The notes below the pieces were generated by a model. The model was not told the origin of the DNA and did not search any database. It saw only the letters and a program-made list of their open reading frames with translations. Below, piece by piece: positions 11,344 through 60,635 of a stretch of 64,000 nucleotides of DNA. Source of the DNA: Candidatus Magasanikbacteria bacterium UBA922 (GTDB lineage Bacteria; Patescibacteriota; Patescibacteriia; Magasanikbacterales; UBA922); the NCBI GenBank assembly GCA_002293825.1, contig DBDW01000008.1:9430-73429 (forward strand). The letters are read 5' to 3'. How positions within the stretch are numbered: position 1 is the first letter of the stretch; the number at the start of each line of letters is the position of its first letter. The position numbers and the translations under genes are program-made.

Positions 11344-11393
11344 GAGTGCCTACTCGGGGAATCCCACGAGCAGACACTCCTCACCCACCTGTA

Positions 11394-11744
11394 TTACAGC
11401 TCTCTTGAACGCATGCGTTGCCACCGCACCTCTTGATGAGGAGACACCAGGCAGACATCGGCAGCCTGTGAACTGACCACACCATCGACCGTGAAGATCC
11501 AGAAGAGGTCTTGCGTAGGATCTTCACGAAACCCTCTGATCTCAGTCACATAGACACGGCGCTGACCACCTACGTATCGTACCTCATAACTCACACGATC
11601 TTCATGCTTGAGCAGTCGATCGAGCACCGTCTCACGACTACCCAGATCGACATCACACCCGCTACTCATGAAATTAAGACTCGTGAGTGAAGTGGCAGCA
11701 ACGCACACATCTCTCAAAAATCTACGCCGATCACTCAAACTCAC
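11394..11744 (-). CDS. hypothetical small protein with a twin-arginine/lipoprotein-like signal. GC-rich foreign cassette A.
   Basis: GTG start preceded by AGGAGG. The N-terminus reads SDRRRFLRDVCVAATSLTSLNFMSSGC. GC3-rich codons, unlike neighbouring genes. Confidence 0.55.
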   Translation of the reverse strand: MSLSDRRRFLRDVCVAATSLTSLNFMSSGCDVDLGSRETVLDRLLKHEDRVSYEVRYVGGQRRVYVTEIRGFREDPTQDLFWIFTVDGVVSSQAADVCLVSPHQEVRWQRMRSREL

Positions 11745-11759
11745 GTTGAACCTCCTAAT

Positions 11760-11995
11760 TCAACACTGAAACAAAAACCCGCCAGGATTTCTGACGGATT
11801 TTGTTCGTTTAGACATCCGATACGGATCACAATAACAAGCACGGAATTGCGATACGTAATAGGATATCGAAAAAACATTTCTCCGTTCCTGCTCGGGACG
11901 TGAAAACTGATGATACGAACACTCTTGACCGGGCTTGGATACCGTTGCGGCACAGCGGAGGCTACCTGAAACAGGAATACCTCACTTCCAGAGTA
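11760..11995 (-). ncRNA. cobalamin-riboswitch-like leader with intrinsic attenuator (RS1)
   Basis: Minus-strand RNA contains GGAAGUGAGGUAUUCC...GCUGUGCCGCAACGGUA and CCCGAGCAGGAAC, both shared with the riboswitch at 15150. A terminator, CCGUCAGaaaucCUGGCGG followed by GUUUUUGUUU, sits just before the AGGAGG-GTG start. Confidence 0.4.
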
Positions 11996-12143
11996 TATTC
12001 ATAGATTTTGCATATAATGAACTGAGAGAAGTGTACCATGTATAAAAACACTCAGTCAAAAATCGCTAACTACTTTATTTTTTTACTGTTTTCTGGTAAC
12101 ATATCCACAACATAACATAATAAAAACACTACACATTACTCAC

Positions 12144-12989
12144 ATGTCAATTATTATCGACGGAAAACAACTCTCTCGGACTATCCTTCATACACTCAAG
12201 AGTGAAGTCGATGTCCTCAAAAAACAACACATTATTCCCAAATTAGGAATTATTTACGTCGGAAACGATAAACCATCAAAAACGTATATCAAAAGAAAGA
12301 GAGAAGCTGCAGAAACAGTCGGTATCGCATGTGATCTACACCAATACCCAGACACGACTTCAAAAGAAACCATTATTTCAGAAATCAAAAAAATACAAAC
12401 AGACAAAACACTTTCAGGACTTATCGTCCAGCTTCCATTACCAGAACCACTGTTTACAGCAGACGTACTCAATGCGCTCGATCCAGAGCTCGACGTCGAT
12501 TGTCTTACTCATACACAGCTCGGAACACTGGTAATGAATACAAACACCATTGCACCACCTACACCAAGTGCAGTGCTCGAAATATTATCATCGCTCAACA
12601 TAGAACTCAAAGGTACACATGTCGTAATTGTAGGAGCAGGACCGCTTGTCGGAAAACCACTTGCAATTATGCTACTCAACAAAGAAGCCACTGTGACTGT
12701 CTGCAATGCACACACACCCAGACTCAAAAAAATAACCAAACGCGCAGATATCGTCATCAGTGCAGTGGGTAAAAAAAATTTAATAACCAAATCTCACATC
12801 AAAAAAGGTTCGATTGTAATCGATACCGGAATCTCCTTTGATCATGGGAAAATGTATGGGGATGTAGATTTTGCACCAGTGGCACGAAAAGCCGGAGCAC
12901 TCACCCCTACGCCCGGAGGAGTCGGTCCCATTACCGTCGCACTATTACTAAAAAACACCATTACAAACGCAAAAAAACTATCCCATTAA
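12144..12989 (+). CDS. folD: bifunctional methylene-THF dehydrogenase/cyclohydrolase
   Basis: Full-length FolD with GxGxxVG NAD(P)-binding and conserved catalytic regions. Confidence 0.9.
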   Translation: MSIIIDGKQLSRTILHTLKSEVDVLKKQHIIPKLGIIYVGNDKPSKTYIKRKREAAETVGIACDLHQYPDTTSKETIISEIKKIQTDKTLSGLIVQLPLPEPLFTADVLNALDPELDVDCLTHTQLGTLVMNTNTIAPPTPSAVLEILSSLNIELKGTHVVIVGAGPLVGKPLAIMLLNKEATVTVCNAHTPRLKKITKRADIVISAVGKKNLITKSHIKKGSIVIDTGISFDHGKMYGDVDFAPVARKAGALTPTPGGVGPITVALLLKNTITNAKKLSH

Positions 12990-13019
12990 AGGGATAGTTT
13001 TTTATACGATATTTCAAGC

Positions 13020-14054
13020 TTATACAGCTGTCGACTGAAACTCATGAAGAATCTGCTCGAGCTCTGACATACTCTCTACTGCCATCAATTTCATGCGCAA
13101 TTCTTTCATACCTTCTATTTTCTCATGAACACGTTCGTTTTTGAAATACCATGCCAAATGTTTTCTAAACGTTGTAATTGCACGTGTTTTAATCATTTCA
13201 GCATCAATACCTACCTCCTGATTCTTTTTACCGAGTGCACGTACTCGTGATTGATATTCGATATGGAGCCGAGCATGTGCGAGCACCGTATCTACACGTT
13301 CAGCAAAAGAAACTTTATACGTAGGATCAAGATATTCTTTGAAAAACCACGGATTACCCAATGCTCCACGTGCAATCAATACTCCATCAGCGCCTGTAAT
13401 TTTCAAAGCTTCATCTACCTGATGCGGCTGATGTATATCTCCATTAGCAAGTAATGGTACAGTGGCAATTTTTTTTGCTTCACCAATTCGTTTCCAATCT
13501 GATACTCCACTGTACCCCTGCTCTTTGGTACGTCCATGAATCGTAATCAATTGAGCACCAGCCTCTTCGATCGCCGGAATAAAATATCTAAAATCATCAG
13601 GACTACTCCACCCTAATCTGATTTTTATCGACAACGGAGTGTCACCGATTGCTCGTTTTATTTCACGAATAATATTCTGAGCAAGTGCAGGATCTTTCAT
13701 CAGCGCACATCCATTGAAATTACTCGTAATTTTGTATACAGGGCAACCCATGTTGATATCAATTCCTTCAGGCCCTGCATGCTCCATCACAATAGCAGCT
13801 GCACGAGCCATCGTGAGCGGGTCTGAGCCAAAAATTTGCTGTACAATTGGTCGTTCAGCTTCTACAAAATCAGTCATTCCAAGTGTTTTTTCGTTATCAC
13901 GCACAATAGCTTCGGCTGAAACCATCTCACGAAACACCACATCAGCACCTCCGATCATTCGTACCATTTGACAAAAAGCCGAATCTGTCATATCAGCCAT
14001 TGGTGAAAGTGCAAGAATTTTTTTGTTTTTAGTCAAAATATCATTGATCCACAT
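13020..14054 (-). CDS. dus: tRNA-dihydrouridine synthase
   Basis: Dus motifs LAPMADMTDSAFCQM, FMN-binding regions and the C-terminal helical domain. The true start is MWINDIL; the track ORF reads through upstream GC-rich DNA. Confidence 0.85.
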   Translation of the reverse strand: MWINDILTKNKKILALSPMADMTDSAFCQMVRMIGGADVVFREMVSAEAIVRDNEKTLGMTDFVEAERPIVQQIFGSDPLTMARAAAIVMEHAGPEGIDINMGCPVYKITSNFNGCALMKDPALAQNIIREIKRAIGDTPLSIKIRLGWSSPDDFRYFIPAIEEAGAQLITIHGRTKEQGYSGVSDWKRIGEAKKIATVPLLANGDIHQPHQVDEALKITGADGVLIARGALGNPWFFKEYLDPTYKVSFAERVDTVLAHARLHIEYQSRVRALGKKNQEVGIDAEMIKTRAITTFRKHLAWYFKNERVHEKIEGMKELRMKLMAVESMSELEQILHEFQSTAV

Positions 14055-14109
14055 AAATTCAATTTTAGAAACTGCAGGACAGAGGATTTCCCCTGCCCTG
14101 CAGTGTGTT

Positions 14110-14325
14110 TCAGGTATGCCCCTTTGTCTCCACTTCTTCGTCATCTGTGCCATCGTCTGAGACGACTGCAAGGCAGCCGATAAGGAAGAGGGTCCCCACT
14201 ACCAGTGGCGGAAGTCTGCCGTACGGGCGTGAGAGCCCGTGCTTGATGAGGTGCCGAGCCATCTGCCCGACTTTTCCTTTCCAGAGTTTCTTCTCTGCAC
14301 GACGAAACGAAGTGGTCACTCGCAT
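14110..14325 (-). CDS. hypothetical 71-aa protein with a C-terminal TM helix (cassette B, gene 3)
   Basis: Its ATG overlaps the stop of the upstream 56-aa ORF (ATGA coupling). GC3-rich. Confidence 0.4.
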   Translation of the reverse strand: MRVTTSFRRAEKKLWKGKVGQMARHLIKHGLSRPYGRLPPLVVGTLFLIGCLAVVSDDGTDDEEVETKGHT

Positions 14326-14495
14326 CACTCGTCCCCCTCGAACCACACCTGACCGAAGAAGATGAAGCTGATCGAGTTCACAGTCCTCTTGAACGCAAAG
14401 GACAATTCCTCGAAAAATTCAGCGATCCCCATGAAGACATTCCTACCCCACTCTTTCATGAACTCTTCGAAACGTGGAAGTCCGCCAATCATCAT
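14325..14495 (-). CDS. hypothetical 56-aa protein, MMIGGLPRFEEFMKEW... (cassette B, gene 2)
   Basis: Preceded by AAAAGGGG. GC3-rich. Absent from the ORF track because it is under 60 aa. Confidence 0.35.
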   Translation of the reverse strand: MMIGGLPRFEEFMKEWGRNVFMGIAEFFEELSFAFKRTVNSISFIFFGQVWFEGDE

Positions 14496-14621
14496 GCACA
14501 CCCCTTTTCACCAAGACTTATTTCTTGCTTGGCTTATCACTACCCGAAAATAATTCCAGGTACTGATAAACATAGGTTCAGGGTGCGTCTCAAATAGAAA
14601 ACGTACCCTGAACCCCACCCT

Positions 14622-14963
14622 TTAGGCAAGCGCAACCTCGTTCACCGGCCAGTACCGGGTCGGAGACACGCGAGGAGGTGTACGAAGAATCGTACCGCCG
14701 GACCTGACGAGCACCTCGACATCTTTGACACGCTCAGAGATCTCGTCGTCCTGGACGACGAGGATGGTCGCACCAGTCTTCTTCACCATGACCACGAAGC
14801 CACCGGTGTAGCTCTGGTAGATGACAGAGACCGTGTACCTCACACCCTGCGAAAAACAGACGTGCGTCTGCACCCCACGAGGATTGATCGGACCACACCC
14901 TTCACGCAGGTCGAAGAGTTTCGAAATTTCCGCCAGAAAATTCTCGGCCACTTCACGAGTCAT
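14622..14963 (-). CDS. hypothetical 113-aa protein (cassette B, gene 1)
   Basis: ATG at 14963 with a strong SD (AAGGAGAGGGAG). GC3-rich. Followed by a 10-bp perfect-stem hairpin, GGTTCAGGGT...ACCCTGAACC. Confidence 0.5.
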   Translation of the reverse strand: MTREVAENFLAEISKLFDLREGCGPINPRGVQTHVCFSQGVRYTVSVIYQSYTGGFVVMVKKTGATILVVQDDEISERVKDVEVLVRSGGTILRTPPRVSPTRYWPVNEVALA

Positions 14964-15099
14964 ATCACTCCCTCTCCTTGTTAAGTGTTTTGTCCAAAAG
15001 GACACGTGACCCTAGCACACTCCTTGAACTTTTGCAAGTCCGAACATTGCCCACAGGATAATACCAAAAAACAATCTTTTTTGCAAGGTTGAGCAAAAG

Positions 15100-15127: not shown

Positions 15128-15149
15128 TCACGCATCATTTACAAACAAA

Positions 15150-15315
15150 CCATATTCTACTGGAACTGGGGTGAAATTCCCCGACTGTGCCGCAACGGTA
15201 AAAGTCCGATCTTGTAGAATATGCATTCTCCCGAGCAGGAACTAATACACCCTATCTTTGTGGTATCGGTGTATTATATATACACATTCCTCCGTTCAGG
15301 GGAATTTTTTTATCT
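15150..15315 (+). ncRNA. cobalamin riboswitch (compact variant) with terminator expression platform (RS2)
   Basis: GGAACUGGGGUGAAAUUCCCCGACUGUGCCGCAACGGUAAAAGUCCG matches the cobalamin core (GGUGaAAuUCC ... CCGCaACnGUaA). P1 is AUUCUAC/GUAGAAU. A terminator, AUUCCUC-cguuca-GGGGAAU followed by UUUUUUU, sits 5 nt before the ATG of the DUF4430 gene. Confidence 0.6.
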
Positions 15316-15320
15316 CAATT

Positions 15321-15920
15321 ATGCACCAAAAGCTTTTATACTTCCTTATCACGCTTTTTACCACTGCAACACTGGTAAGTGGATATTCAGTAATCAGAGA
15401 TCAAAAATCACCTGTCGAAAAAAATACAGTTTCTACACAATTAAATACTGACACTCCAGCACACACACAAAACATTGAATCAGATATTAAAAATTCCATT
15501 CACTATACCGAAACTACTCAAAAAAAAGAGCCAGAATCAGACATTGAGAACAGCGAGATCATAAATACTTCCACTACTCCAGACACAGAAACTCATCCTT
15601 ACGAAATATTTGAAGCGAAAGTGACGCTCGCGATCGATGGAAAAAATCTTCATATCCCCTATCACGATAGCATGACCGCTGAACGTGCGATGCGGGACGT
15701 TGCACAACGGTATCCTGAATCATTCCACTATGAAGGAATCGAATATGGCGGGGACCTCGGCACATTCGTGACGGCGATCAACGGTAAGAAAGAAAATCCA
15801 CAAGAAAAAATGCGCTGGATCCTGTATCTCAACGGAAGCCCATCACCCAAAGGAATATCAATACTCACACTTAATCCAGACGATATACTCTCATGGAACT
15901 ATGAAAAAGAAACTCTATAG
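15321..15920 (+). CDS. secreted DUF4430 (transcobalamin beta-domain-like) protein
   Basis: Signal/TM followed by a C-terminal domain: TLAIDGKNLHIPY...YEGIEYGGDLGTFVTAINGK...WILYLNG. This family is typically found downstream of B12 riboswitches. Confidence 0.6.
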   Translation: MHQKLLYFLITLFTTATLVSGYSVIRDQKSPVEKNTVSTQLNTDTPAHTQNIESDIKNSIHYTETTQKKEPESDIENSEIINTSTTPDTETHPYEIFEAKVTLAIDGKNLHIPYHDSMTAERAMRDVAQRYPESFHYEGIEYGGDLGTFVTAINGKKENPQEKMRWILYLNGSPSPKGISILTLNPDDILSWNYEKETL

Positions 15921-18603
15921 CTTGCTCGTAATCATTTCACTTCTTTTCTCAAATATCGGGTTTGTATACGCATCAGAAGAATCTATCGAAGAAACGACTG
16001 CCGAAACCACAGAACAAATTCCCCAAGAAAATACTCCAGACGAAGCCGTAGAATCACCAACCTCAACTCCTGATACAATACCTGAAGATCTTCCTACGCG
16101 TACAGCAAAGCTCAGAATTGAAACATCTAAAGGGGTCTTGTTTGAAGATTCCGTTACCTTTAGTGCATGCAAACCATATGAGACGTCTGAAGAATATACA
16201 CTCAACGCACAATGCCTCATTGAGCAAACGGACGGATTGGACGTAGTTTGGACTCCAGGTGATGACGCATGGCTTGATCGAATAAACCAATACGGCACAG
16301 ACCTTTCAACGGGCTTATACTGGGCATACTTTGCAAATCTCGAATATGGGTCAGTCGCGTTGAATCATCTACCGGTACATGAAGGAGATGAGGTGTTGCT
16401 TGTGTACGGGGTAAACCCGCTTAAGATAGAAGTAGACACTCTTTCACCCACCCTTTACACAACAACAACGGTACGTGTATATGAATTTGGTTTTGATGAG
16501 TTTTGGAGTCCTGTATGGCTTCCTTCAAATAGTAGTACTCTATTACTGGATGAAAATTCGATTGCCGTCTCTCAAAATGGAGAAGCAATTCTCACATTTG
16601 ATACGCTCGACACACAAACACTTCGAGCAATTAAGACAGGACTTGCCTCAAGCAATAGTATTGAAGTGTACCCCATATTGCCAACAACCAAAGCTCAACT
16701 ACATGTAGTGGCACACGGACAAACTCTTTTCCACGACACCATAGAGGTGACAGCATGCATACCTAACGAAACACAGACTGATAGATACACATTAAACGCA
16801 CGATGCTTAATTGATCAAGCAATCGGCATTACACCTACCTGGAGCACCTATGGTACTGATTCCTTTCTCGATTCAATCAATGGTATAGACAACAACTTCG
16901 AAACCGGACTGTATTGGGGATATTTTATCAATCATGAATATGCTTCAACTGCGCTCAATCAATATATTCTCACTGAAGGAGATGAACTATTGATTACATA
17001 CAATACTATCCCACTCAAACTCACATTTTCGACCACTACCCCTACCACCGGAGACACAGTCACCGTATCTCTATACGAATTTGGTTTCGATGAGTTTTGG
17101 AGTCCTGCATGGCTAGCAGCGACCGGGGCATTATTCACAATAAACGGCACACCTGTAACCACCACTGATCACACTTATACATTTATCCCTACGACCACGA
17201 TTCCATATCTCATTCGTGCAGAAAAAGAAGGATATATCACGATTGAAAAAACCTTGGTGGCAACCACGACCCAATCTACCGGTGAATCAACTGAAAATAA
17301 TGAAGGAACAGGAGGCAATGGCAGCTCATCAGGGGGAAATATCACCAATCCTGTACAGCGTATGATCCAATTCCTCGATAGCACACAAAATGCCGACGGA
17401 TCATTTGGTTCAACTCCATTCCTGACTGATTGGGCAGCACTTGCCTATGGATCGTGGACAGACTCTTCACAAGGATTGAACGCTCTCAAAAATTACCTCA
17501 TCAGTGACCCTACCCCACTAGATGGTCCAAACGCAACCACAAATTACGCGCGCCGTAGTATGGCACTCATGGCACTCGGTATCAATCCTTATTCTGGAAC
17601 ACCCACCAACTATATTGAAAAAATAATTTCAGGATTTGACGGGACTCAATTCGGAGATACCGGTCTCATAAATGATGATATATTCGCACTCGTCCCATTA
17701 GTACACGCAGGGTATTCCAATAATCCGATTGTGGCTTCTACCACAAAATTTATCATTGAAAATCAATCAGCAAACGGATCATTTGGCTCAATCGATCTGA
17801 CCGCGGCTGCAATCCAAGCACTCTCTCCATTCTCATCTGACGACAATGTGCGCACCGCACTCACACACGCACGAACATATCTCAAAAATGCACAACGCAT
17901 TGATGCTGGTTTTGGCGATGTATATGCGACAGGATGGGTTCTCCAAGCAATCAGCGCACTTGGTGAACACATCTCTGACTGGCTAGTCAACGGCATCTCG
18001 CCAGTATCATATCTTACCAACGCACAAGCATCTGATGGAGGATTATTGAGTAGTGATGTACGAGCTAATCGTATCTGGTCTACCAGCTACGCAATTCCTG
18101 GACTGCTTGGCACCCCTTGGAATAAAATTCTTGCATCATTTGAGGCTCCAGTCACCACACCTGAAACCAGTGGACAAGGCTCATCTACCGCTACTACTAC
18201 CTTCGACATCATTACCCCTACCACCACTGTGGATAGCACAACCACCTCGACACCCATTTCACCAGAGATTACTATTACTGAAAACAGTGTAGATACGCTC
18301 GAACAAGGTTCCACATACACATCTTCCTCAATGCCGACCCCCATTATCACCTCTCGACAAGTAGAAAGCCAGACATCAATCGTACGAGGAGAACGAATTA
18401 TCGAGGATGTAGAACCATCTACAACACCCTCATCAACACCTACGAACACCCCTGAATCAACACTCGCGCCTGATGCAGATGGTGCGCAAACACTATCACA
18501 CACACCTACTCCCATCACCCGATACATCTTCTGGTCTTCATTTACTGCACTACTACTCGCACTCGGATATAGCTGGTTTATCCGCCCCACTTCAAAAAAA
18601 TAA
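15901..18603 (+). CDS. large surface-anchored protein combining two DUF4430-like repeats with prenyltransferase/squalene-oxidase-like repeats
   Basis: Signal peptide. Two repeats of about 110 aa (VTFSAC..YTLNA(Q/R)CLI...G.YW.YF.N.EY...ALN). QxxDGSFGS-type alpha-toroid repeats. An S/T/P-rich stalk and a C-terminal TM anchor. The layout resembles a transcobalamin alpha-plus-beta architecture. Confidence 0.55.
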   Translation: MKKKLYSLLVIISLLFSNIGFVYASEESIEETTAETTEQIPQENTPDEAVESPTSTPDTIPEDLPTRTAKLRIETSKGVLFEDSVTFSACKPYETSEEYTLNAQCLIEQTDGLDVVWTPGDDAWLDRINQYGTDLSTGLYWAYFANLEYGSVALNHLPVHEGDEVLLVYGVNPLKIEVDTLSPTLYTTTTVRVYEFGFDEFWSPVWLPSNSSTLLLDENSIAVSQNGEAILTFDTLDTQTLRAIKTGLASSNSIEVYPILPTTKAQLHVVAHGQTLFHDTIEVTACIPNETQTDRYTLNARCLIDQAIGITPTWSTYGTDSFLDSINGIDNNFETGLYWGYFINHEYASTALNQYILTEGDELLITYNTIPLKLTFSTTTPTTGDTVTVSLYEFGFDEFWSPAWLAATGALFTINGTPVTTTDHTYTFIPTTTIPYLIRAEKEGYITIEKTLVATTTQSTGESTENNEGTGGNGSSSGGNITNPVQRMIQFLDSTQNADGSFGSTPFLTDWAALAYGSWTDSSQGLNALKNYLISDPTPLDGPNATTNYARRSMALMALGINPYSGTPTNYIEKIISGFDGTQFGDTGLINDDIFALVPLVHAGYSNNPIVASTTKFIIENQSANGSFGSIDLTAAAIQALSPFSSDDNVRTALTHARTYLKNAQRIDAGFGDVYATGWVLQAISALGEHISDWLVNGISPVSYLTNAQASDGGLLSSDVRANRIWSTSYAIPGLLGTPWNKILASFEAPVTTPETSGQGSSTATTTFDIITPTTTVDSTTTSTPISPEITITENSVDTLEQGSTYTSSSMPTPIITSRQVESQTSIVRGERIIEDVEPSTTPSSTPTNTPESTLAPDADGAQTLSHTPTPITRYIFWSSFTALLLALGYSWFIRPTSKK

Positions 18604-18645
18604 TACGATACCGTATACTTAGCACACCTTAACCACATTGTAACT

Positions 18646-19193: not shown

Positions 19194-19233
19194 AAAAAAA
19201 CATCCTGATGTATAGTCAGGATGTTTTTTATTA
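19194..19233. terminator. intrinsic terminator, a repeated element identical to the one at 22775
   Basis: AAAAAAACATCCTGAT-gtatag-TCAGGATGTTTTTTATT. Confidence 0.6.
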
Positions 19234-21378: not shown

Positions 21379-21550
21379 CATAAACATCAGGTAATTAATA
21401 CAGCACGTACAGTATATCACATGCATATGCACAGATATCTATCCGTATGTATATTGTTCTTATTATGTAAAATTGTTATGCTATGTGTTCCCCTGGCCAT
21501 GCAGCATGCCGGGGTTCGACAGAAATGCTGCCCAAAGGAGAAATGGCCAC

Positions 21551-21871
21551 ATGGCCAAAGTGCTGAATGTTACTCTCTCCGGTGATCCAAGAAATCCGAG
21601 CGGTCCCTGCATCTCACACGCGTTCAACAACTACCGTTCATTCTTCAAAGACACGATCGTGTTCTACGGAGAAACTGACTCGGGTGTTCATGTCGAACTC
21701 GAGGTGAAGGTGAGCGAACTGCGATGGCTCGAAAAAACAGGCTCCTGGCAAGAAATCAAAGGGGTGACTGCTGACTCAAGCTCATCGTACGTGGCACAGC
21801 TCGAGACGGATAAAAAGATCGGTTCCATCCGATGCACCTCTCTCGCCAAGGCGTCCTACGCTGAAGCCTGA
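21551..21871 (+). CDS. hypothetical 106-aa protein (GC-rich cassette C)
   Basis: AAGGAG SD and GC3-rich codons. Followed by an 11-bp perfect inverted repeat, TGCCCACACAC...GTGTGTGGGCA. A possible promoter, TTGTTC-17-TATGCT, lies upstream. Confidence 0.45.
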   Translation: MAKVLNVTLSGDPRNPSGPCISHAFNNYRSFFKDTIVFYGETDSGVHVELEVKVSELRWLEKTGSWQEIKGVTADSSSSYVAQLETDKKIGSIRCTSLAKASYAEA

Positions 21872-22774: not shown

Positions 22775-22811
22775 AAAAAACATCCTGATGTATAGTCAGG
22801 ATGTTTTTTAT
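22775..22811. terminator. intrinsic terminator, a repeated element identical to the one at 19194
   Basis: AAAAAACATCCTGAT-gtatag-TCAGGATGTTTTTTATTTCACATT. Confidence 0.6.
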
Positions 22812-22817
22812 TTCACA

Positions 22818-26730: not shown

Positions 26731-27432
26731 TCACTCGATCGGAAAACGGTGACGAACTTCGAAGTGCACTCCACGCTTATCCAGCATGAACTGCACCACA
26801 TCGACCGACACGTAGAGATTCTCCCGCCCACTCGCAGGAAAATCTTCCATCACCTTCGGAAGTCCGCTCTTTTCGATCGCTTCTGCGGACATCGCTCCGG
26901 TAAACCGAGCGATCGTCATGTGCGTACCCCAGGGAAGTGGAAGCTCGGCCCCTTTCCGATGACAGGATCCGAGCATCTCGGACATGGAGTGTACCAGCTC
27001 TGCAGTGGGATACGTCTTCAGGATTGCCGACACCTGATTGAATGTCGGGCGATCGATTCTTGCCGCAAGACGAGACCGATCCCGATTGCCCCACGTGCGA
27101 ATTGTTTCCTCGACAGCATCGTAGCAGGCGTCCAAGATCTGGACCACCTTTTCTTCGGACTCCTGCACGCAGTCCACGAGACCGATCACCGTATGTAGAT
27201 CACGAGTCTCATACACCAGTGCCGACGGAACTGCTTTTTTGAGCTTTTTGAGCCACGGTGCGAACGCCTCCCTGATGTTCTGGTGTGGTCTCATGACGAT
27301 TCCAACACCACGCGAAGGTCGTGTGAACACCGGATCTTCCAGAACTCCTTCTTTCCGTGCTTTCCAGTGCCCCGCCCGAATCTCGTCGTAGATTTTATCC
27401 TGCCGATGAATAAACGCAGGAAAATTGAGCAT
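26731..27432 (-). CDS. 2H phosphoesterase superfamily protein (LigT/ThpR-like) in GC-rich cassette D
   Basis: Two HxT/S motifs (LHTVIGLV and HMTIARF), GC3-rich codons and a strong SD (GGAGGGGGG) before MLNFPAF. The track ORF is 14 codons longer. Confidence 0.5.
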   Translation of the reverse strand: MLNFPAFIHRQDKIYDEIRAGHWKARKEGVLEDPVFTRPSRGVGIVMRPHQNIREAFAPWLKKLKKAVPSALVYETRDLHTVIGLVDCVQESEEKVVQILDACYDAVEETIRTWGNRDRSRLAARIDRPTFNQVSAILKTYPTAELVHSMSEMLGSCHRKGAELPLPWGTHMTIARFTGAMSAEAIEKSGLPKVMEDFPASGRENLYVSVDVVQFMLDKRGVHFEVRHRFPIE

Positions 27433-53738: not shown

Positions 53739-53895
53739 TACTATACCACGACCTATTGATATCGTCAAGAAGCCTGTGTTCCTCTCATGATACATTGACA
53801 ACAAAACCCTACTATGATAGCTTCTTTCCAAGTTTGGACTGTCTCAGTCTAGACTCTAGCCAACAACCAACCCTTGCGACGACCAAGGAGGACAT

Positions 53896-53991
53896 ATGGA
53901 CCCGCCGAAGAAAAACCTGGTGAAAAAAGATAACATGATGGACAAGTCCAGCATCGGCAAGACGGCGCGCACGACGACCGCGGCACGCTGA
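53896..53991 (+). CDS. hypothetical 31-aa lysine-rich peptide (GC-rich cassette E, first ORF)
   Basis: A consensus SD (AAGGAGGA) sits 6 nt before the ATG. GC3-rich codons, unlike the AT-rich host genes. Confidence 0.35.
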   Translation: MDPPKKNLVKKDNMMDKSSIGKTARTTTAAR

Positions 53992-54144
53992 TCCACGACA
54001 CGGAGGTCGAGGATCCGCACCCCCCCACCGTAAGGAAAGGAAATGAAAAAGTATGCAGTCTTCTAGCGATTCCAACCTTTGGCTTTCGTGACCACAGTCA
54101 ACCTTACTACCGCAGATGCGGTACGAAAAAAGCTGTGCTCGCAC

Positions 54145-54199
54145 CTAGAGCCACACCTATCACACGAACAACAACTCAAGTGATATGGTGTGGCTCTAG
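54145..54199. repeat. long nested inverted repeat (13-bp perfect stem plus 6-bp inner stem)
   Basis: CTAGAGCCACACC-TATCAC...GTGATA-tg-GGTGTGGCTCTAG. Confidence 0.6.
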
Positions 54200-54220
54200 A
54201 CTACTATTATCATCTATCTC

Positions 54221-54243
54221 AAAAACGCCTATAAGGCGTTTTA
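54221..54243. terminator. bidirectional intrinsic terminator
   Basis: AAAAACGCC-tataa-GGCGTTTTATT. Confidence 0.55.
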
Positions 54244-54254: not shown

Positions 54255-54283
54255 TTGACAATTTCTCGTTATTTGTGTACCAT
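54255..54283 (+). promoter_or_regulatory. near-consensus sigma-70 promoter
   Basis: TTGACA, a 17-nt spacer, then TACCAT. Confidence 0.5.
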
Positions 54284-54376
54284 CTCACGGCCTGTTTTAC
54301 CTGTGTTCCAGTATTCACTGATACACAACAGGTTACATAACTACACGAGTAACAACAATACACTTTTGGAGCAATC

Positions 54377-54601
54377 GTGCACGATCCTCGTTTTTCCTCG
54401 TTCTTCTACGACACCCTCCCTGACAAGAGTGAAAGCGCCCGATCGACCACGCTCGTCCCCGACGACTCGATCCCCACGGGACCGCTACACCCGCGTCGAG
54501 TACGGGCAGGAGGCAACCGCCGGATCCAGACCGACAACGGTCTCATGAAGTTCACCGGCGAGGAGACGCCAGGCAACACAGGTGACGGAAACGTCGCCTA
54601 A
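54377..54601 (+). CDS. hypothetical 74-aa acidic/proline-rich protein (GC-rich cassette E, second ORF)
   Basis: GTG start with GGAG 5 nt upstream and GC3-rich codons. The ORF on the opposite strand is probably frame noise. Confidence 0.4.
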   Translation: MHDPRFSSFFYDTLPDKSESARSTTLVPDDSIPTGPLHPRRVRAGGNRRIQTDNGLMKFTGEETPGNTGDGNVA

Positions 54602-54705
54602 GAAGCACTCTCTGTAGTTACCGGCGCTGTATTCAACCGACTTCTCGTAGTTGGGTACGGCGTCCGGACTCAACTTGTTCATTCTAAGATAATCTTATCT
54701 ACAAG

Positions 54706-54765
54706 AAAAAGCAGATAGCAAGTAGCAAACTAATTTGATACTACACTATCTGCTTTTTTATTTTG
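54706..54765. terminator. bidirectional terminator hairpin with a large loop
   Basis: AAAAAGCAGATAG...(loop)...CTATCTGCTTTTTTATTTT, between the convergent cassette E gene and guaC. Confidence 0.5.
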
Positions 54766-55806: not shown

Positions 55807-57831
55807 TTATTCTACGACTGCTTTGATACGGCGAACCCCTGCACTTACCGCTTCTTCTTTTACAATTTTGAATTTTCCGATCACTCCCGTGTGTTCCACA
55901 TGTGGTCCTCCACAGAGTTCTCTACTAAACGTCGGAGCTTTCGGATCTGCGACTGGCAACTCTTTTGGATCACCCACACTGTACACTTTTACCATATCTT
56001 CGTATTTGTCTCCAAATAGCCCCATTGCCCCGCGTTTTCTCGCTTCTTCGAGAGGTAATATCTCGAATCCTACAGGATAATCTCGCTCAATTGCTGCATT
56101 TACCAATTCTTCAACGGCTGCAATCTGCTCGGGTGTCATTTTTTCTCCATGCGCAAAATCAAATCTCAAACGCTCGGGCGTGATATTACTTCCTTTTTGT
56201 ACCGCATGAGGACCTAACACCTTTTGTACTGCAGCATGGAGTAAATGTGTAGCGGTATGATATTTCAGACTCATCTCACTATGATCCGCGAGCCCACCTT
56301 TGAATTTCTGCTCAGATGCTTGACGAGAAAGTTCTTGATGTCTATTTTTTTCATTCTCAAACCCTTGTAAATCAACTTTTAACGCCCTCTCATTTGCAAG
56401 TTCTAGAGTTAATTCAATTGGAAAACCATATGATTGCACCAAATCAAAAGCTTGAACACCATCAATCACATTATCATCAAGTGCATTTTTATCTTTTATA
56501 ATACTTTCAAATTTTTTAAGACCTTGTTCTAAGGTATTTCTAAATTTCTTCTCCTCTTTTTCCAATTCATTCAAAATATCAATTCGTTTTTCATTTAAAT
56601 TAGCGTAAGCGCTGGAATAATAATTAATAAAACAATCAGCAACAAATGAAGTAAAGTTCTCTTTTATTCTAAGCTTTAAACCAAATCTCACTGCTCTTCT
56701 AATAAGCCTTCTAACAAAATATCCTTGATCTTTATTCCCAGGTAACACCCCATCACTAATCAAAAATGTTGCAGCACGAATATGATCAAGAATTACTCTA
56801 AACGCATAGGTAATTTCTTTTTGACTGATAGGATAAGTTCCATCTTGGATTTTTTCTGTCTCAAGTTTATTTCCAGAACTAAAAACATATTCAGCGGTGA
56901 AAGGTTCACTTTGATATCTAAGTTTTGTTTTTTCTTCAAGCAAAAATATTGCATCCTCAAATACATCAATCCTAAACACATCAGGATTTCCATTCAGTGC
57001 CGCTGCAATACGTTCGAGCCCTCCGCCAAAATCCACATTCTGCTGCTGTAATTTTTCAAAACCATTCTCAGTCTTCTGATATTCCATGAATACATTGTTT
57101 CCAATTTCCATGAATCGACCACAGTCGCAATTCACATGACACGGACTATCTTTCCATTCTGATGTTTCGTGCAATCCGAGCTCTACTCCAAAATCCCAAA
57201 ACATTTCAGTGTCTGGGCCACCAGGCTCTCCGACTGGCATGTTGCCAGGCACCCCACTTCTGCTCCACCAATTTTTCTTTTCTGAATAATAAAAAATTCG
57301 CTCACCTGGTTTCATCCCATCTTTTTCTGGATCTTCCCCGATACCCGCATCGATATTTTTTTCTTTATAAAGTTTCTGCCACAATTCTGCAGCTTCGGTA
57401 TCACGAGGAATACCAAGCTCTTCATTTCCTTTGAAACACGTGAAATACAACCGATTCGGATCGAGACCGACTTCTGTGGTCAAAAATTCCCACATCCAGG
57501 GAATCTGCTCTTGCTTAAAATAATCACCCAAGGACCAGTTACCAAGCATTTCAAAAAAGGTAGTGTGGCGATTATCACCCACTTCTTCGATATCTTGTGA
57601 TCGAAAACATTTTTGCGAATCAGTAATTCTGGTTCCCTGAGGATGCTTCTGTCCGAGTAAATATGGAACCATCGGTTGCATTCCTGAGCCAGTAAACAGA
57701 GTAGTAGGATCATTCTCCGGAATAAGCGAAGAAGATGGGATTACCACGTGTCCCTTCTGTGCAAAAAATTCGAGATATTTTTTTCTAAGTTCTGATGTAG
57801 ACATACCTGTGCAATCGTACACGAAATTCAC
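55807..57831 (-). CDS. alaS: alanine--tRNA ligase, short form lacking the C-Ala domain
   Basis: Class-II catalytic core (FTGSGMQPMVPYLLG), tRNA-recognition and editing domain with HTATHLLHAAVQKVLG. It ends after about 674 aa. Confidence 0.85.
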   Translation of the reverse strand: MNFVYDCTGMSTSELRKKYLEFFAQKGHVVIPSSSLIPENDPTTLFTGSGMQPMVPYLLGQKHPQGTRITDSQKCFRSQDIEEVGDNRHTTFFEMLGNWSLGDYFKQEQIPWMWEFLTTEVGLDPNRLYFTCFKGNEELGIPRDTEAAELWQKLYKEKNIDAGIGEDPEKDGMKPGERIFYYSEKKNWWSRSGVPGNMPVGEPGGPDTEMFWDFGVELGLHETSEWKDSPCHVNCDCGRFMEIGNNVFMEYQKTENGFEKLQQQNVDFGGGLERIAAALNGNPDVFRIDVFEDAIFLLEEKTKLRYQSEPFTAEYVFSSGNKLETEKIQDGTYPISQKEITYAFRVILDHIRAATFLISDGVLPGNKDQGYFVRRLIRRAVRFGLKLRIKENFTSFVADCFINYYSSAYANLNEKRIDILNELEKEEKKFRNTLEQGLKKFESIIKDKNALDDNVIDGVQAFDLVQSYGFPIELTLELANERALKVDLQGFENEKNRHQELSRQASEQKFKGGLADHSEMSLKYHTATHLLHAAVQKVLGPHAVQKGSNITPERLRFDFAHGEKMTPEQIAAVEELVNAAIERDYPVGFEILPLEEARKRGAMGLFGDKYEDMVKVYSVGDPKELPVADPKAPTFSRELCGGPHVEHTGVIGKFKIVKEEAVSAGVRRIKAVVE

Positions 57832-58220
57832 GATTAACGCAAGTATTTGAGGGCAACAAAAAGAAGAATTCCTACCAAAATGAGGTACGGCCAGGTAGCT
57901 GCGAAAAAGTCCCAGATTCCGATGATACCATCCATAGATTAAGGGTATTAAAATTTGAAGTAATTGGGGTTTTTAGCCCTAATATATCGGGCTTTTAGAG
58001 TATACCACACTTTCTAAAGAAGAATACAGGCTCTATTGAAAAACCCGTTCTGATATGCAGCATTAGAACACTCAACACAACTAGCTGCAAAAGGGTTGGT
58101 AGAATGTCTAAATTCTCATTCTCAAAAAGAAATAGAGAGCTTCGAACACTCGTTTGAGCGGACACTGTCCCGTGTTTGTCCCCCGACGTATGTCGAGGTC
58201 TCGATGAACACGAGCAGCAC

Positions 58221-58250
58221 AAACACATTCACCTATACAGGTGTTTTTTA
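58221..58250 (+). repeat. left copy of a 30-bp direct repeat containing a terminator hairpin
   Basis: AAACACATTCACCTATACAGGTGTTTTTT. An identical copy lies at 58635. Confidence 0.75.
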
Positions 58251-58359
58251 TTATGTAAAAAACACCATACAATTGACAAAATTATAAAAACATGGTATTT
58301 TGATTTGTCCTTTTGGACCACCCATCTTTGATGTAAGTGCACTCGAACAGGAGTCTGAC

Positions 58360-58563
58360 ATGGTAGAAAAAATCGTCACCTTCCCCAAGGAAGGTACTGA
58401 GCAAGAAATCCGAAACATGCACAGTCAAGAAGCCAACCTGGCAATCGTTGCCCAGGCAAATGACTGGCTTACCCAGAAGGCCGACAGCATCGACGTTCTC
58501 CATCGGTCAGTCCACACGAGTGGAGGCCTACTGGTCATCACGGTCTGGTATAACGATCGGTGA
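58360..58563 (+). CDS. hypothetical 67-aa protein (GC-rich cassette F)
   Basis: Promoter TTGACA-17-TATTTT at 58273..58301. SD AGGAG and GC3-rich codons. Followed by a 10-bp inverted repeat, CTGATTCCCG...CGGGAATCAG. Confidence 0.5.
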   Translation: MVEKIVTFPKEGTEQEIRNMHSQEANLAIVAQANDWLTQKADSIDVLHRSVHTSGGLLVITVWYNDR

Positions 58564-58634
58564 TCAGATAACGGACACCACAACTGATTCCCGTTTTTGC
58601 AACCCTCCTCGGGCAAGTAAATACGGGAATCAGT

Positions 58635-58664
58635 AAACACATTCACCTATACAGGTGTTTTTTT
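58635..58664 (+). repeat. right copy of the 30-bp direct repeat / terminator
   Basis: AAACACATTCACCTATACAGGTGTTTTTTT. Confidence 0.75.
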
Positions 58665-58668
58665 ATTT

Positions 58669-59757
58669 TTACGCAATAACTCCCCCACCGAGACATTCAC
58701 CATCTTTATAAAGTACCGCAAACTGACCCGGACTAATCGCTCGTTGAGGATTTTCACAAATGATAGTGATATTTCGAGGATCAGACACCTGTATCGTGCA
58801 TGTTTCAAGTTTCTGACGATGACGAAAACGTACCAGACAATCAAATGAAGATTTCAATGGTCGACCAGCAATCCAATTCATTTCACAAATTTCTATTCTT
58901 GTAGTAAAAAGCATCGGATCGGTATCATATCCTACGACAAGCTCATTCTTCTCCACATCTTTACCCACCACATAGAGCGGACGTTTTCCTCCTGTCTGTT
59001 CAAAACCATGGCGCTGACCAATCGTGTAAAATGGCAATCCTTCATGCTCGCCAATTTTTTCCCCTTTTGAATTTTTTACCATACCCCTTCTTCCTCTAAT
59101 ACGTTTTTCCAAAAAACTTTTTATCGGTACTTCACCAATAAAACAGATTCCCATACTTTCTTCCTTATTGGCAGTAGGTAGGTCAAATTTTTTTGCAAGT
59201 TTTCTCACTTCAGATTTTGTATATTTTCCAATTGGAAACATTGCATGAGAAAGTTGTTCTTGATTGAGTTGGTGCAAAAAATAAGTCTGATCTTTGTCAG
59301 TATCAACTGATTCAAGCAAACGATAGAGGCCTCTTTTTTTCTCTACCTGTGCATAGTGTCCTGTCGCGAGAATGTCAAATCCTTTCTGTTTTGCGACCTC
59401 AAGCCAGGCACCATATTTAATAAGACTATTGCACAAGATATCAGGATTTGGTGTGCGTCCTGCTTCGTATTCTCGATATACATATTCCAATACTTTTTCC
59501 TGATACTCTTTTCTAAAATCTAATTGTAATAGCGGAATATCTAAACGTGCTGCCACCCGAAGTGCATCACGATATTCTGGAATCCAGCACGATTCACCAT
59601 CAGTCGTGATTGCTTCATCTGCAGTATCATAATTGATCATGAACGCACCTGTAACGTCATATCCCTGACGTACCAAAAGAGCGGCAGCAACTGATGAGTC
59701 GACACCGCCGGACATAGTCATGAGAATTTTGGATTTTGTTGTATTTCTAAACCACAT
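58669..59757 (-). CDS. mnmA: tRNA-specific 2-thiouridylase
   Basis: PP-loop SGGVDSS, and the catalytic Cys and C-terminal domains are conserved. The start is probably near MWFRNTT/MTMSGG. Confidence 0.9.
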   Translation of the reverse strand: MWFRNTTKSKILMTMSGGVDSSVAAALLVRQGYDVTGAFMINYDTADEAITTDGESCWIPEYRDALRVAARLDIPLLQLDFRKEYQEKVLEYVYREYEAGRTPNPDILCNSLIKYGAWLEVAKQKGFDILATGHYAQVEKKRGLYRLLESVDTDKDQTYFLHQLNQEQLSHAMFPIGKYTKSEVRKLAKKFDLPTANKEESMGICFIGEVPIKSFLEKRIRGRRGMVKNSKGEKIGEHEGLPFYTIGQRHGFEQTGGKRPLYVVGKDVEKNELVVGYDTDPMLFTTRIEICEMNWIAGRPLKSSFDCLVRFRHRQKLETCTIQVSDPRNITIICENPQRAISPGQFAVLYKDGECLGGGVIA

Positions 59758-59758
59758 A

Positions 59759-60205
59759 TTATAATCGTGCAGAACCTCCCATATTTTGTCCCTCTCCCCT
59801 CTGTCGTTCCATTTCACGTTCATGCTCCTCCCTTCGCATCTCGGTTACCAATTCTACAGCCCAATCTCCAATAACCTCTCTTTGGTGAAATTGTTCTACT
59901 GGACCCACAAACAATCCTCCTTCTGGAATTTCATCCGTTCCATACTCCTTGAATAAGTATCGATTGGCAATTGTAAGATCTGAAATAAGTGCATTATGTT
60001 TAATCGTTCGAAGCTTATCAGCATTTGCAAACTTATCTTGAAAATCATACGATCCTTGATGAATTGCGAGTATCCTTTCTGTACGCTCAATCTGACGAAT
60101 ATAATCAGTCGCTTTGACAAGGACATTTTCAATTAATTTTAATGCTTGAGGATCTGAAGTCACTTTGTCCTTTATTTCACGTATACGATCCGTATATTTA
60201 CCCAT
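59759..60205 (-). CDS. hypothetical protein
   Basis: A 148-aa ORF directly upstream of mnmA with no motif recognised. Confidence 0.4.
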   Translation of the reverse strand: MGKYTDRIREIKDKVTSDPQALKLIENVLVKATDYIRQIERTERILAIHQGSYDFQDKFANADKLRTIKHNALISDLTIANRYLFKEYGTDEIPEGGLFVGPVEQFHQREVIGDWAVELVTEMRREEHEREMERQRGEGQNMGGSARL

Positions 60206-60267
60206 ATTCTTGACTTATTAGTAAAAATGTGTAACAATAGGCCGTTCCCCGAAAAGGAGAAGGGAAC

Positions 60268-60582
60268 ATGAAGACTTTGCTAGAAGCCTATCAAAAAGCA
60301 GTCCTTCACGCCAGAGACAAAGATACACTGTTCACGCTCCTCGAACAATTCGAGGATGCAATAGCAGCGATTCTTACACATCTGGACGCGAGGGGTTCTG
60401 CCCATCTTGTCAACAAGGAGGTGAACAATGTGACAGAACTTTCTCACTCTGTCACAGAAGCAAAAAAACTACTTGCAAAACTTCCGATCGAGGGACTTGT
60501 CCTCGATTTTGTCTCCGATGAGGAGATGGTGAGTTTTGCAATCGAACTGGGATATACTCGCACTTTGTCACGTGCGAGATAA
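60268..60582 (+). CDS. hypothetical 104-aa protein (possible cassette G)
   Basis: Strong SD (AAAGGAGAAGGG), moderately GC-enriched. Followed by terminator ACTCGTGG...CCACGAGT-CTTTCTTTTT at 60585..60628. Confidence 0.45.
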   Translation: MKTLLEAYQKAVLHARDKDTLFTLLEQFEDAIAAILTHLDARGSAHLVNKEVNNVTELSHSVTEAKKLLAKLPIEGLVLDFVSDEEMVSFAIELGYTRTLSRAR

Positions 60583-60635
60583 TAAACTCGTGGTCTACTC
60601 TATGTGGCCACGAGTCTTTCTTTTTATATAAAACT

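Follow-up and report, generated by a model that had tools for sequence, protein, structure and literature searches.

The locus analyzed here raises the question of why an AT-rich genome carries short GC-rich gene segments, and whether these were brought in from elsewhere or belong to the lineage. The window, by which we mean the whole 64,000-nt stretch of a Candidatus Magasanikbacteria UBA922 contig (Candidate Phyla Radiation (CPR)/Patescibacteria) under study, has a mean GC content of 0.42 and contains seven such segments, or islands, numbered S1 to S7 along its length and holding 10 small open reading frames (ORFs) in total. An initial annotation had suggested that they are gene cassettes acquired repeatedly from a high-GC donor. 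We favor, with a probability of roughly 60%, a different reading, namely that the islands are autonomous small-gene units of a class that is restricted to this lineage and has long resided in it; they occupy fixed intergenic hot spots and are turned over beside terminators.

The islands stand out by composition. The GC content of all seven was 46-57%, compared with 42% for the window, and in 300-nt bins they appeared as peaks of 0.527 for S1 (11401-11700), 0.553, 0.493, and 0.533 for S2 (14101-15000), 0.523 for S3 (21601-21900), 0.560 and 0.543 for S4 (26701-27300), 0.560 for S5 (54301-54600), and 0.467 for S7 (60301-60600). The GC content at third codon positions (GC3) was 0.352±0.053 in 55 core ORFs and 0.44-0.72 in the candidate island ORFs (z of +1.6 to +7.0 relative to the core), with a value of 0.84 in an S5 ORF of 31 amino acids (aa); S7, at 0.44, was the weakest outlier. 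First and second codon positions were also shifted, and island proteins were enriched in R (1.55-fold), D, and V and depleted of I (0.55-fold), Y, and N. The island borders coincided sharply with gene ends, and flanking core genes showed no GC enrichment. A trivial source of such a pattern would be an assembly or binning artefact, in which reads of a GC-rich organism became chimeric in a CPR genome. Nothing specific points to it apart from the origin of the window in metagenome assemblies. The same island genes were found, identical, at the same loci in independent NCBI, JGI, ENA, and Logan assemblies, and homologs were present in more than 10 independently assembled relatives with syntenic core genes on both sides; the chance of an artefact is thus negligible.

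The second distinguishing property of the islands is their translation initiation signal. The strength of the Shine-Dalgarno (SD) sequence was expressed as the energy of the duplex formed with ACCUCCUUU over the -22..-4 region of each start. At 52 core starts, including those of the ribosomal and RNA polymerase genes S13, S11, S4, RpoA, L13, and S9, the mean was -0.4 kcal/mol, and a single start reached -6 or lower. All 10 island starts had an SD, with energies of -5.6 to -11.5 (Fisher's exact p = 5e-9), in agreement with the initial annotation, which had described core genes as mostly lacking them. The sequence context also differed: position -1 was T at 75% of core starts and C at 70% of island starts, and a G-rich -9..-5 region preceded island starts, while core starts were preceded by A/T-rich sequence devoid of purine-rich motifs, a pattern suggestive of an unusual, SD-independent start-site signal in core genes. 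Island homologs in relatives kept the SD, and the core genes of these relatives lacked it. When database gene calls were used, the association was weaker yet remained significant (5 of 15 island starts vs. 5 of 74 core starts, p = 0.01); independent public gene calls agreed on the starts or ORFs of S2b, S2c, S3, S4, S6, and S7. Taken as an indicator of a functional anti-SD, the internal GGAGG motif was depleted within core coding sequences (z = -2.0), but control motifs were depleted to an equal degree. PMC9297842 found an anti-SD motif in only 48% of Parcubacteria, and in PMC9976891 and PMC7797042, ribosomes of Bacteroidia are described as SD-blind, with special genes such as rpsU keeping an SD.

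Do these signatures reflect recent horizontal acquisition of each segment from a high-GC, SD-using donor, such as an actinobacterial host, with too little time for amelioration? GC, GC3, amino acid use, SDs, and GC-rich hairpins all differ from the core and look "actinobacterial". In addition, S6 is a recent insertion, and the block containing S3 is missing from one related genome (L006; L-numbers such as L005, L006, and L110 label homologous loci fetched from relatives). The distribution of the islands in relatives tells otherwise. The loci were recovered from the organism's own kin: relatives of the dus gene (13020-14054, minus strand) were 64-88% identical and came from Candidatus Magasanikbacteria/Magasanikiibacteriota metagenome-assembled genomes (MAGs) or from unclassified binned MAGs that bore an evidently wrong "Gammaproteobacteria" label, with two distant matches at 31%. 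For S1, S2, S3, S4, and S7, GC-rich, SD-led genes were present at the syntenic sites, and GC islands were found at the same positions in at least nine relatives at the dus locus and in four at the mnmA locus. The initial annotation had held that synteny combined with a composition typical for the lineage would speak against an imported origin; we observed the synteny, but the composition of the syntenic segments was not the one typical for the lineage.

Sequence divergence allowed us to estimate how long the islands have been resident. Homologs of S1, S2, S3, S4, and S7 were 21-53% identical, compared with 76-92% for flanking core proteins. The ratio of nonsynonymous to synonymous divergence (dN/dS) was 0.04-0.09 for dus and 0.05-0.07 for mnmA (two estimable pairs) vs. 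0.14-0.55 for island genes (0.12 for gene C of S2), whose dN was 4-10 times that of the core, and third codon positions had an excess of changes in S1, S2A, S2C, and S7. With dN/dS below 1 and an excess of third-position changes, the island genes, S5 excepted, behave as protein genes under relaxed purifying selection. In pairs of loci that were not saturated, dS values of islands and neighboring core genes were similar (0.84 and 0.58 vs. 0.54 for L005-L006, 0.29 vs. 0.52 for L011-L025, and 0.81 vs. 0.67 for L010-L025). Gene A of S2 retained a GC3 of 0.62-0.86 in 10 of 10 genomes, where dus had 0.29-0.46. Since dS values are similar and GC3 is kept across saturated divergence, the genes have apparently diverged alongside the rest of the genome over a long period while retaining their composition. 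The GC-richness that persists at saturated synonymous divergence is thus unlikely to be an un-ameliorated foreign signature. Across 10 genomes, island GC3 and host GC3 were not significantly correlated (r = 0.40).

A direct search for donors led to the same conclusion. An exhaustive HMMER scan of 1.84 billion protein cluster representatives, with concatenated island proteins as the query, returned only their own clusters for S2b, S2c, and S6, and one sister cluster each for S2a, S3, and S7; nothing was found for S5b, and S1 had three relatives in addition to generic DUF4430 proteins. The few S4 clusters with source names were labelled Patescibacteria, apart from one Aenigmarchaeota MAG, and two further S4 members lay on Patescibacteria-type contigs. 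A word-indexed homolog search with S4 recovered S4 itself only, and one with the concatenated island proteins returned nothing. Scans of IMG/VR viral contigs with S2c, S3, and S4 revealed no relatives, so phage origin gains no support. The expression signals also appeared to be indigenous. S1 is preceded by a paralog of a native riboswitch. The TTGACA-type promoters that had been noted for the cassettes were confirmed (as TTGACA-N16-18-TAnnnT, of the sigma-70 type) in just four cases, S4, S6, and the two S5 units, and they are not distinctive: TTGACA-type promoters also precede core units, for example, the riboswitch operon and a tRNA, and are thus native, while the hexamer itself is depleted genome-wide (33 observed vs. 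59 expected). A recent origin in a high-GC donor, actinobacterial or other, is therefore largely refuted for S1, S2, S3, S4, and S7, and is very improbable as a general explanation; as judged from sequence comparisons, the islands are lineage-restricted and long-resident.

Although long-resident as a class, individual units are replaced. The clearest case is S6, which lies beside mnmA between two perfect 29-nt direct repeats that correspond to the bidirectional mnmA terminator. In four relatives (L108, L110, L111, and L112), alignment revealed an uninterrupted site without S6. S6 is thus a precise 414-bp insertion composed of a 385-bp unit and a duplicated 29-nt target. At the same site, L112 contains a different cassette between perfect 39-nt repeats, with a promoter module 88% identical to that of S6, and in each genome, a different SD-led, GC-rich small gene is found there, antisense to mnmA. 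At the dus locus, L010 carries a 500-bp unit (SD, 115-aa ORF, and hairpin) between two ~50-nt copies of the element that separates S2 genes A and B, of which L009, L011, and L025 hold one copy. In L022, a 435-bp GC-rich unit lies between 30-nt repeats. Perfect target duplications around the insertions were thus 29 (S6), 30, 39, and ~50 nt long, and the inserts measured 385-580 bp. Tandem duplication was considered as a source of the repeats and rejected, because the repeats are 100% identical, whereas the intervening units are unrelated and the terminator itself varies from species to species. The alternative offered by the initial annotation, a dispersed family of mobile cassettes, is borne out as far as S6, L010, L112, and L022 are flanked by 29-50-nt perfect duplications, with empty sites in relatives, but the seven islands share no sequence. 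They are not a repeat family: the sole match in a cross-island search was the riboswitch paralogy, and no sequence is common to the island ends.

Transcripts of the islands are predicted to be highly structured. Whole island units folded with z values of -2.6 to -7.0 relative to dinucleotide shuffles, except for one half of S4 (-0.5), and their mean of -3.7 differed from that of 16 core segments (-0.5, p = 2e-4). The effect was retained in coding sequences alone, relatives included (-1.9 for islands vs. -0.3 for the core, p = 0.003). Long GC-rich 3' hairpins were present, as had been described, but the statement that they lack a U-tract does not hold for S5, S6, and S7, whose hairpins share, or lie before, a canonical U-tract terminator.

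GC-rich islands in AT-rich genomes are often structured RNA genes, and some or all segments could be such genes with incidental ORFs. The folding of S5 unit 1 (z = -6.15), S5 unit 2 (-6.26), and the S7 unit (-7.0) is in line with this, as are the S5 ORFs, with their small size or weak SD and their lack of homologs and public gene calls. A GC-rich hairpin past mnmA, present in five of five genomes and read through by spurious ORF calls in three, points in the same direction. On the other side are the dN/dS values below 1 and third-position excess of S1, S2A, S2C, and S7, the confidently predicted fold of S4, the Pfam match of S1, and a correctly spaced SD at every ORF. Rfam at its gathering threshold found only four tRNAs and one AdoCbl-II riboswitch in the whole window and nothing inside the islands, and at E of 1 or less it returned only noise over S5. 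We consider an RNA-only nature of the segments unlikely; for S5, where the ORFs are weakly supported, sequence features suggest two transcription units whose product may be protein or RNA.

GC-biased gene conversion at recombination hot spots could also raise the GC content, in which case the SDs and RNA structure would be secondary. It would account for a shift at all three codon positions and is compatible with recurrent cassette replacement at the same sites and with the mosaic divergence of S2. Within this one island, gene C of the window was 87% identical to the L005 copy (83-87% identity, dS of 0.56, and dN/dS of 0.12, with a dS of 1.94 for the adjacent dus), while gene A was 28% identical, which indicates allele-scale recombination. 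However, the borders of the islands are sharp, and the flanking core genes that would anchor the exchange are not GC-enriched. Moreover, the S6 cassette was GC-rich on arrival, structure exceeds that expected from dinucleotide composition, and the SD motifs are conserved and so selected. Gene conversion as the primary cause is, in our judgment, a rather improbable one.

Lineage-restricted, autonomous small-gene units remain the interpretation that we prefer, and the following mechanism can be proposed. The units sit between core operons in fixed hot spots, usually against a terminator, and each consists of a short leader, a strong SD, one to three small ORFs, and a GC-rich stem-loop, often with the bidirectional terminator of the neighboring gene behind it. 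The view of the initial annotation, that each cassette is a self-contained unit of small genes and brings its own expression signals, agrees with the predicted elements of Table 1. The cassettes would form a separate translational class, since core genes appear to start from AT-rich regions without an SD. GC-rich, over-structured mRNAs may be barred from the SD-independent route and thus need pairing with the anti-SD; this dependence may merely permit translation, or it may set the class under common control. The GC-richness itself might be upheld by selection that favors structured or stable RNA, or by biased repair or conversion. Turnover would proceed by two routes, fast protein evolution and insertion or replacement that duplicates 29-50 bp of a hairpin-forming target, shuffling cassettes within the gene pool of the lineage. 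In its strongest form, the proposal states that Magasanikbacteria, and perhaps other Parcubacteria, have two initiation regimes in each cell, an SD-independent one for the core and an SD-dependent channel for mobile, GC-rich, structured small genes that are inserted by an undescribed mechanism targeting hairpins or terminators and duplicating 29-50 bp. This extension is speculative and, as a whole, unlikely to hold; if it were true, the cassette class would be a conditionally translated, fast-diversifying toolkit, for example, for host interaction or stress.

Several observations weigh against the interpretation that we prefer. Parsimony polarisation of changes in island genes gave roughly balanced numbers, 106 AT>GC and 120 GC>AT substitutions, with saturated outgroups, and at third positions there was an excess of GC>AT (39 AT>GC vs. 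67 GC>AT), although the test is weak at this divergence. A fast-evolving core-type gene at 60636-61091 (35-51% identity) has a GC3 of 0.39, so the GC signature does not follow from rapid evolution as such. SD and GC-richness are not strictly coupled, because a GIY-YIG nuclease gene (6116-6379, minus strand) is AT-rich yet carries an SD stronger than any other in the window (-12.8 kcal/mol); outside the islands, no further real gene has a strong SD at its start. Some start codons were picked with the SD in view. The 3' end of 16S rRNA is absent from the window and from every fetched locus, so the anti-SD of this organism was not seen there. No recombinase was identified among the ~23 of ~55 window core ORFs that were scanned, with Pfam labels covering ~17-37 kb of the window and the 50-64-kb neighborhoods of relatives. 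Finally, the 38-nt perfect repeats that bracket the S3 block are not a simple target duplication, because they enclose a conserved HAD gene; the equivalent pair of terminators in L006 is not identical.

The islands resemble several known systems in part. Like flexible genomic islands or islets, they occupy conserved positions between core genes and have hyperdivergent or non-homologous content made up of lineage-specific ORFans. Unlike them, the units are tiny (0.3-1 kb, one to three genes), GC-richer than the host, and equipped with an initiation signal other than that of the core; they have co-diverged vertically rather than been acquired recently, and no tRNAs or integrases adjoin them. Bacterial ORFans and islands are usually AT-richer than their host. 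Integron cassettes are likewise site-specific single-ORF units ending in a palindrome, with a repeat between consecutive cassettes, as at the mnmA site of the window and L112. In contrast to integron cassettes, however, every unit here has its own SD, and S4, both S5 units, and S6 have their own promoter (L112 shares the S6 module). In addition, the flanking repeats copy a local terminator or operator and form no attC family, and the units are dispersed instead of forming an attI-anchored array. An IntI-like gene was not seen in the annotated parts of the window. The perfect 29-50-nt hairpin-containing repeats that flank the inserts bring to mind CRISPR repeat duplication by Cas1-Cas2, casposon target duplications, and the att repeats of integrase islands, but neither Cas1 nor a casposase or integrase was found close to the insertions, the inserted DNA consists of expression units of 385-580 bp, and repeat length varies with the target. 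With regard to translation, the closest parallel is the SD-blind Bacteroidia (PMC7797042, PMC9976891, and PMC13000453), in which core genes are likewise SD-less with an AT-rich start context, and a small minority has a strong conserved SD. The Bacteroidia type is further defined by a 16S rRNA anti-SD that bS21, bS18, and bS6 sequester. The differences are the phylum (CPR) and the extent of the SD set, which here is a whole small accessory class coupled to GC-richness and structure, as opposed to the one strong-SD gene, rpsU, known from F. johnsoniae. For the class-level pattern of GC-rich, structured, SD-led ORFan cassettes in fixed hot spots of an SD-less CPR genome with 29-50-bp target duplications, we found no described system in the literature.

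If confirmed genome-wide, the pattern would mean that lineage-specific ORFans are GC-richer than the genome, the opposite of the usual rule, and are marked by their own ribosome-binding strategy. CPR bacteria account for much of the diversity of bacteria, and hardly any have been cultured. A combination of SD and GC3 would provide a simple rule for finding the accessory small proteome, parts of which (S5 and the hairpin downstream of mnmA) gene callers miss or mis-call. It also raises the question of what role the anti-SD plays where core genes make no use of it. A possible new route of cassette insertion, in a group where few mobile elements are known, is indicated by the repeat-flanked insertions.

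The coordinates of island features are collected in Table 1.

Table 1. Island features and associated elements (window coordinates; SD energies in kcal/mol)
Feature	Position	Strand	Details
S1 hairpin, long, imperfect, GC-rich	11342..11381		13 nt past the S1 stop codon; AGGAGTG...CACTCCT, inner stem CTCGGGG/CCCACGAG
S1 coding sequence	11394..11744	-	116 aa; DUF4430 (Pfam); SD AGGAGG, energy -10.9
S1 attenuator hairpin with U-tract	11770-11797	-	After the S1 leader
S1 leader	11885..12010	-	Diverged paralog of the AdoCbl-II riboswitch at 15152-15222 (alignment)
Hairpin closing the S2 operon	14071..14104		Just upstream of the dus start codon (14054); 16-nt arms, 88% complementary
S2 gene C	14110..14325	-	71 aa; SD energy -10.7; basic N-terminus, one predicted transmembrane helix, acidic tail
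S2 gene B	14325..14495	-	56 aa, helical, acidic; GC3 0.71; SD energy -8.1
Conserved A/B intergenic element	14499..14569	-	Palindrome, part of it promoter-like; near-invariant CCAAGCAAGAAATAAGTCTTGG hairpin just ahead of the gene B SD
Stem-loop past S2 gene A	14576..14616		10-13-bp stem
S2 gene A	14622..14963	-	113 aa; GC3 0.68; SD energy -8.5
38-nt perfect direct repeat, two copies	19195..19232; 22775..22812		Bidirectional terminator; copies bracket the S3 block
ECF-type sigma factor gene	20803-21432		Extracytoplasmic function (ECF) type; divergent from S3
S3 coding sequence	21551..21871	+	106 aa; GC3 0.61; SD energy -8.9
S3 3' hairpin	21895-21933		
S4 coding sequence	26731..27432	-	233 aa; predicted 2H phosphoesterase (LigT/ThpR-like superfamily)
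S4 promoter	27503-27531	-	TTGACA-N17-TAGATA
S5 unit 1	53795..54243	+	Promoter 53795-53823; SD-led 31-aa candidate ORF 53896-53991; hairpin 54145-54199; terminator 54222-54243
S5 unit 2	54255..54758	+	Promoter 54255-54283; candidate 74-aa ORF 54377-54601; bidirectional terminator 54706-54758
29-nt perfect direct repeat, two copies	58221..58249 (distal); 58635..58663 (proximal)		mnmA bidirectional terminator; 414-nt spacing; proximal copy directly after the mnmA stop codon
S6 cassette	58250..58634	+	Promoter 58273-58301; SD; 67-aa ORF 58360-58563; 16-bp-stem hairpin 58583-58634
S7 coding sequence	60268..60582	+	104 aa; SD energy -8.9
S7 terminator hairpin	60586-60615		
GC-rich stem-loops	14071-14104; 14576-14616; 21895-21933; 54145-54199; 58583-58634		Inverted-repeat scan and direct reading; 54145-54199 is perfect with 13 bp, 58583-58634 has 16 bp

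As the initial annotation had stated, the small proteins are essentially undescribed, with few or no relatives, and one of them, S4, has the motifs and predicted fold of a 2H phosphoesterase. Searches of Pfam, NCBIfam, and PADLOC with the island proteins of the window and relatives returned DUF4430 as the only match; for the S2 operon and the other island proteins, PADLOC gave no match at E of 0.05 or less, and Pfam and NCBIfam gave no match to defense or toxin-antitoxin families. The 2H phosphoesterase and the DUF4430 lipoprotein are themselves ordinary annotations.

The S2 island is a conserved module that, from its sequence, is predicted to comprise three genes and two transcripts (gene A, then genes B and C), with C coding for a small membrane protein. 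A GC-rich island of 0.8-1.6 kb is located directly upstream of dus in nine relatives. The position of gene A is occupied by a 99-136-aa gene in these nine, seven of which recognizably belong to one family, with dN/dS values of 0.29-0.55 among relatives; the gene A protein of the window is only 21-28% identical to this family. The position and stem length of the stem-loop past gene A are kept in every relative while its sequence is entirely different, which implies covariation. Conversely, the ~70-nt A/B element is 80-100% identical in L005, L006, L009, L010, L011, and L025 (blastn), while the flanking proteins are hyperdivergent. The gene B ORF is called in a public collection as P0141, and positional equivalents of B, C, or both are present in several relatives.

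S1 is predicted to encode a riboswitch-controlled lipoprotein of the B12-binding type. Its product matched Pfam DUF4430 with 32.8 bits (cutoff of 23.8) over residues 39-109, and a homolog, P0144, is annotated as a Magasanikbacteria DUF4430 protein. The N-terminus, as read from the sequence, has a twin-arginine-like RRRFL motif and an SSGC lipobox; the TIGR01409 score of 15.6 is under the cutoff of 16.7. Homologs at the syntenic site in L005, L006, and L025 were 44-53% identical, with dN/dS of 0.20-0.38. The S1 leader and the AdoCbl-II element share an invariant core, CTGGAA..CTGTGCCGCAACGGTA..TCCCGAGCAGGA, and L005 and L006 conserve the leader ahead of their S1 homologs. At E of 1 or less, Rfam found no cobalamin match in the leader and only a sub-threshold attenuator-like match at 11770-11891. 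The paralogy with a native riboswitch would place S1 in the organism's own B12 regulon. The AdoCbl-II riboswitch itself (plus strand, 44.8 bits) heads an operon at 15258-19188 whose products are a protein of 220 aa, a DUF4430 protein of 900 aa, and a DUF6580 protein. The arrangement is kept in relatives and is probably a cobalamin capture and uptake locus.

By gene pairing, S3 is a putative partner of the ECF sigma factor encoded next to it. The sigma/S3/HAD arrangement is kept in L116, where the S3 homolog is 50-53% identical and has a GC3 of 0.57 vs. 0.23-0.31 in the flanks. The whole 19.2-21.9 kb block is missing from L006, one of two relatives that are informative for it.

S4 is predicted to be a 2H phosphoesterase acting on RNA ends or on cyclic or 2'-5' nucleotides. 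In a family of 50 members, H80 and R176 are invariant, T81, P167, W168, G169, H171, and T173 are near-invariant, and two H-x-T motifs are present. The family profile matched PDB entries 1vdx and 2fyh (E = 4e-5 and 2e-4). An AlphaFold2 model had a predicted local distance difference test score (pLDDT) of 96.0 and a predicted template modeling (TM) score of 0.91, while single-sequence prediction was unusable (pLDDT of 37.8). In a Foldseek comparison of the model with PDB, the top 19 of 19 matches were 2H enzymes, including 1vdx, 1iuh, LigT, drCPDase, AKAP18, and CPDase, with a probability of 1.00 and target-normalized TM-scores of 0.58-0.70. S4 alone had no Pfam match at E of 1 or less, LigT_PEase and 2_5_RNA_ligase2 included, 3 of the 50 relatives reached E of 0.01 or less, and phmmer against PDB sequences gave nothing meaningful. 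Thus, S4 resembles LigT/ThpR-type enzymes in its motifs and predicted 2H fold, with best matches to 1vdx, 1iuh, and E. coli LigT, but it is ~45 residues longer, has an N-terminal helix, falls under Pfam thresholds, and belongs to an uncharacterized family. This family comprises ~85 distant clusters with 21-41% identity, all of 200-250 aa and mostly from CPR-type metagenomes. The syntenic homolog in L113, from the L006 genome, is 41% identical, with a GC3 of 0.72 and an SD energy of -9.3, and a distant member on a patescibacterial contig of 53% GC is SD-led among mostly SD-less neighbors. Between S4 and a LytR-family gene lies a ~125-nt element (26610-26735; 6730-6829 in L113) that is 95-96% conserved, compared with 41% for S4. 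A long A-tract/stem/U-tract hairpin, AAAAACCACCCA...TGGGTGGTTTTT, that has further stems inside it is part of this element, which may be a leader or a terminator.

In the S5 units, the 31-aa candidate ORF has an SD energy of -11.2, and the 74-aa one has a GTG start, a weak SD, and a GC3 of 0.72; no called gene corresponds to either in public collections. A metagenome-contig scan with the GuaC-like protein for synteny over S5-S7 found only relatives of at most 48% identity from other organisms. The S5 hot spot of L111 (8473-9465) contains a gene for a 330-aa multi-pass membrane protein with a GC3 of 0.84, the most extreme value seen. The hairpin past mnmA, GTGTTTGT...ACAAACAC (58150-58220), lies directly beyond the mnmA terminator in the window, L108, L110, L111, and L112, and may form the 3' terminus of an antisense unit, either a small gene or a small RNA.

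S7 homologs at the syntenic site in L110, L111, and L112 were 42-45% identical, with dN/dS of 0.14-0.39 and an SD conserved at -12. The fold z of the S7 coding sequence was -6.5, and the homologs in relatives had values of -2.6 to -4.0. Its SD is within the loop of a small hairpin, GTTCCC...GGGAAC (60244-60270), beside the start codon, with a similar arrangement in L111 and L112; this hairpin could be a translational switch. At the S7 hot spot, L110 carries an AT-rich Avd-like gene (8728-9093; Pfam 23S_rRNA_IVP, weak bAvd; GC3 of 0.24), and cargo that is not GC-rich is thus accepted too. Genes for VirD4/TrwB-type coupling-protein ATPases are located at both ends of the window (122-2167, plus strand, and 61102-63087, minus strand), one of them adjoining the S7 hot spot.

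Elsewhere in the window, two AT-rich troughs with a GC content of 0.26-0.33 were observed, at 5401-6000 (a 172-aa ORF without a Pfam match) and at 56401-57000 (inside a 674-aa AlaRS-like gene). Two tRNA-Gln genes (6058-6134 and 36082-36158; anticodons CTG and TTG) are 88% identical and 30 kb apart, and the GIY-YIG gene, which resembles a small selfish insertion, overlaps the start of the first of them (6059-6130) by ~15 nt. The window also contains tRNA-Thr(CGT) and tRNA-Gly(CCC), decoders of G-ending codons in an AT-rich genome.

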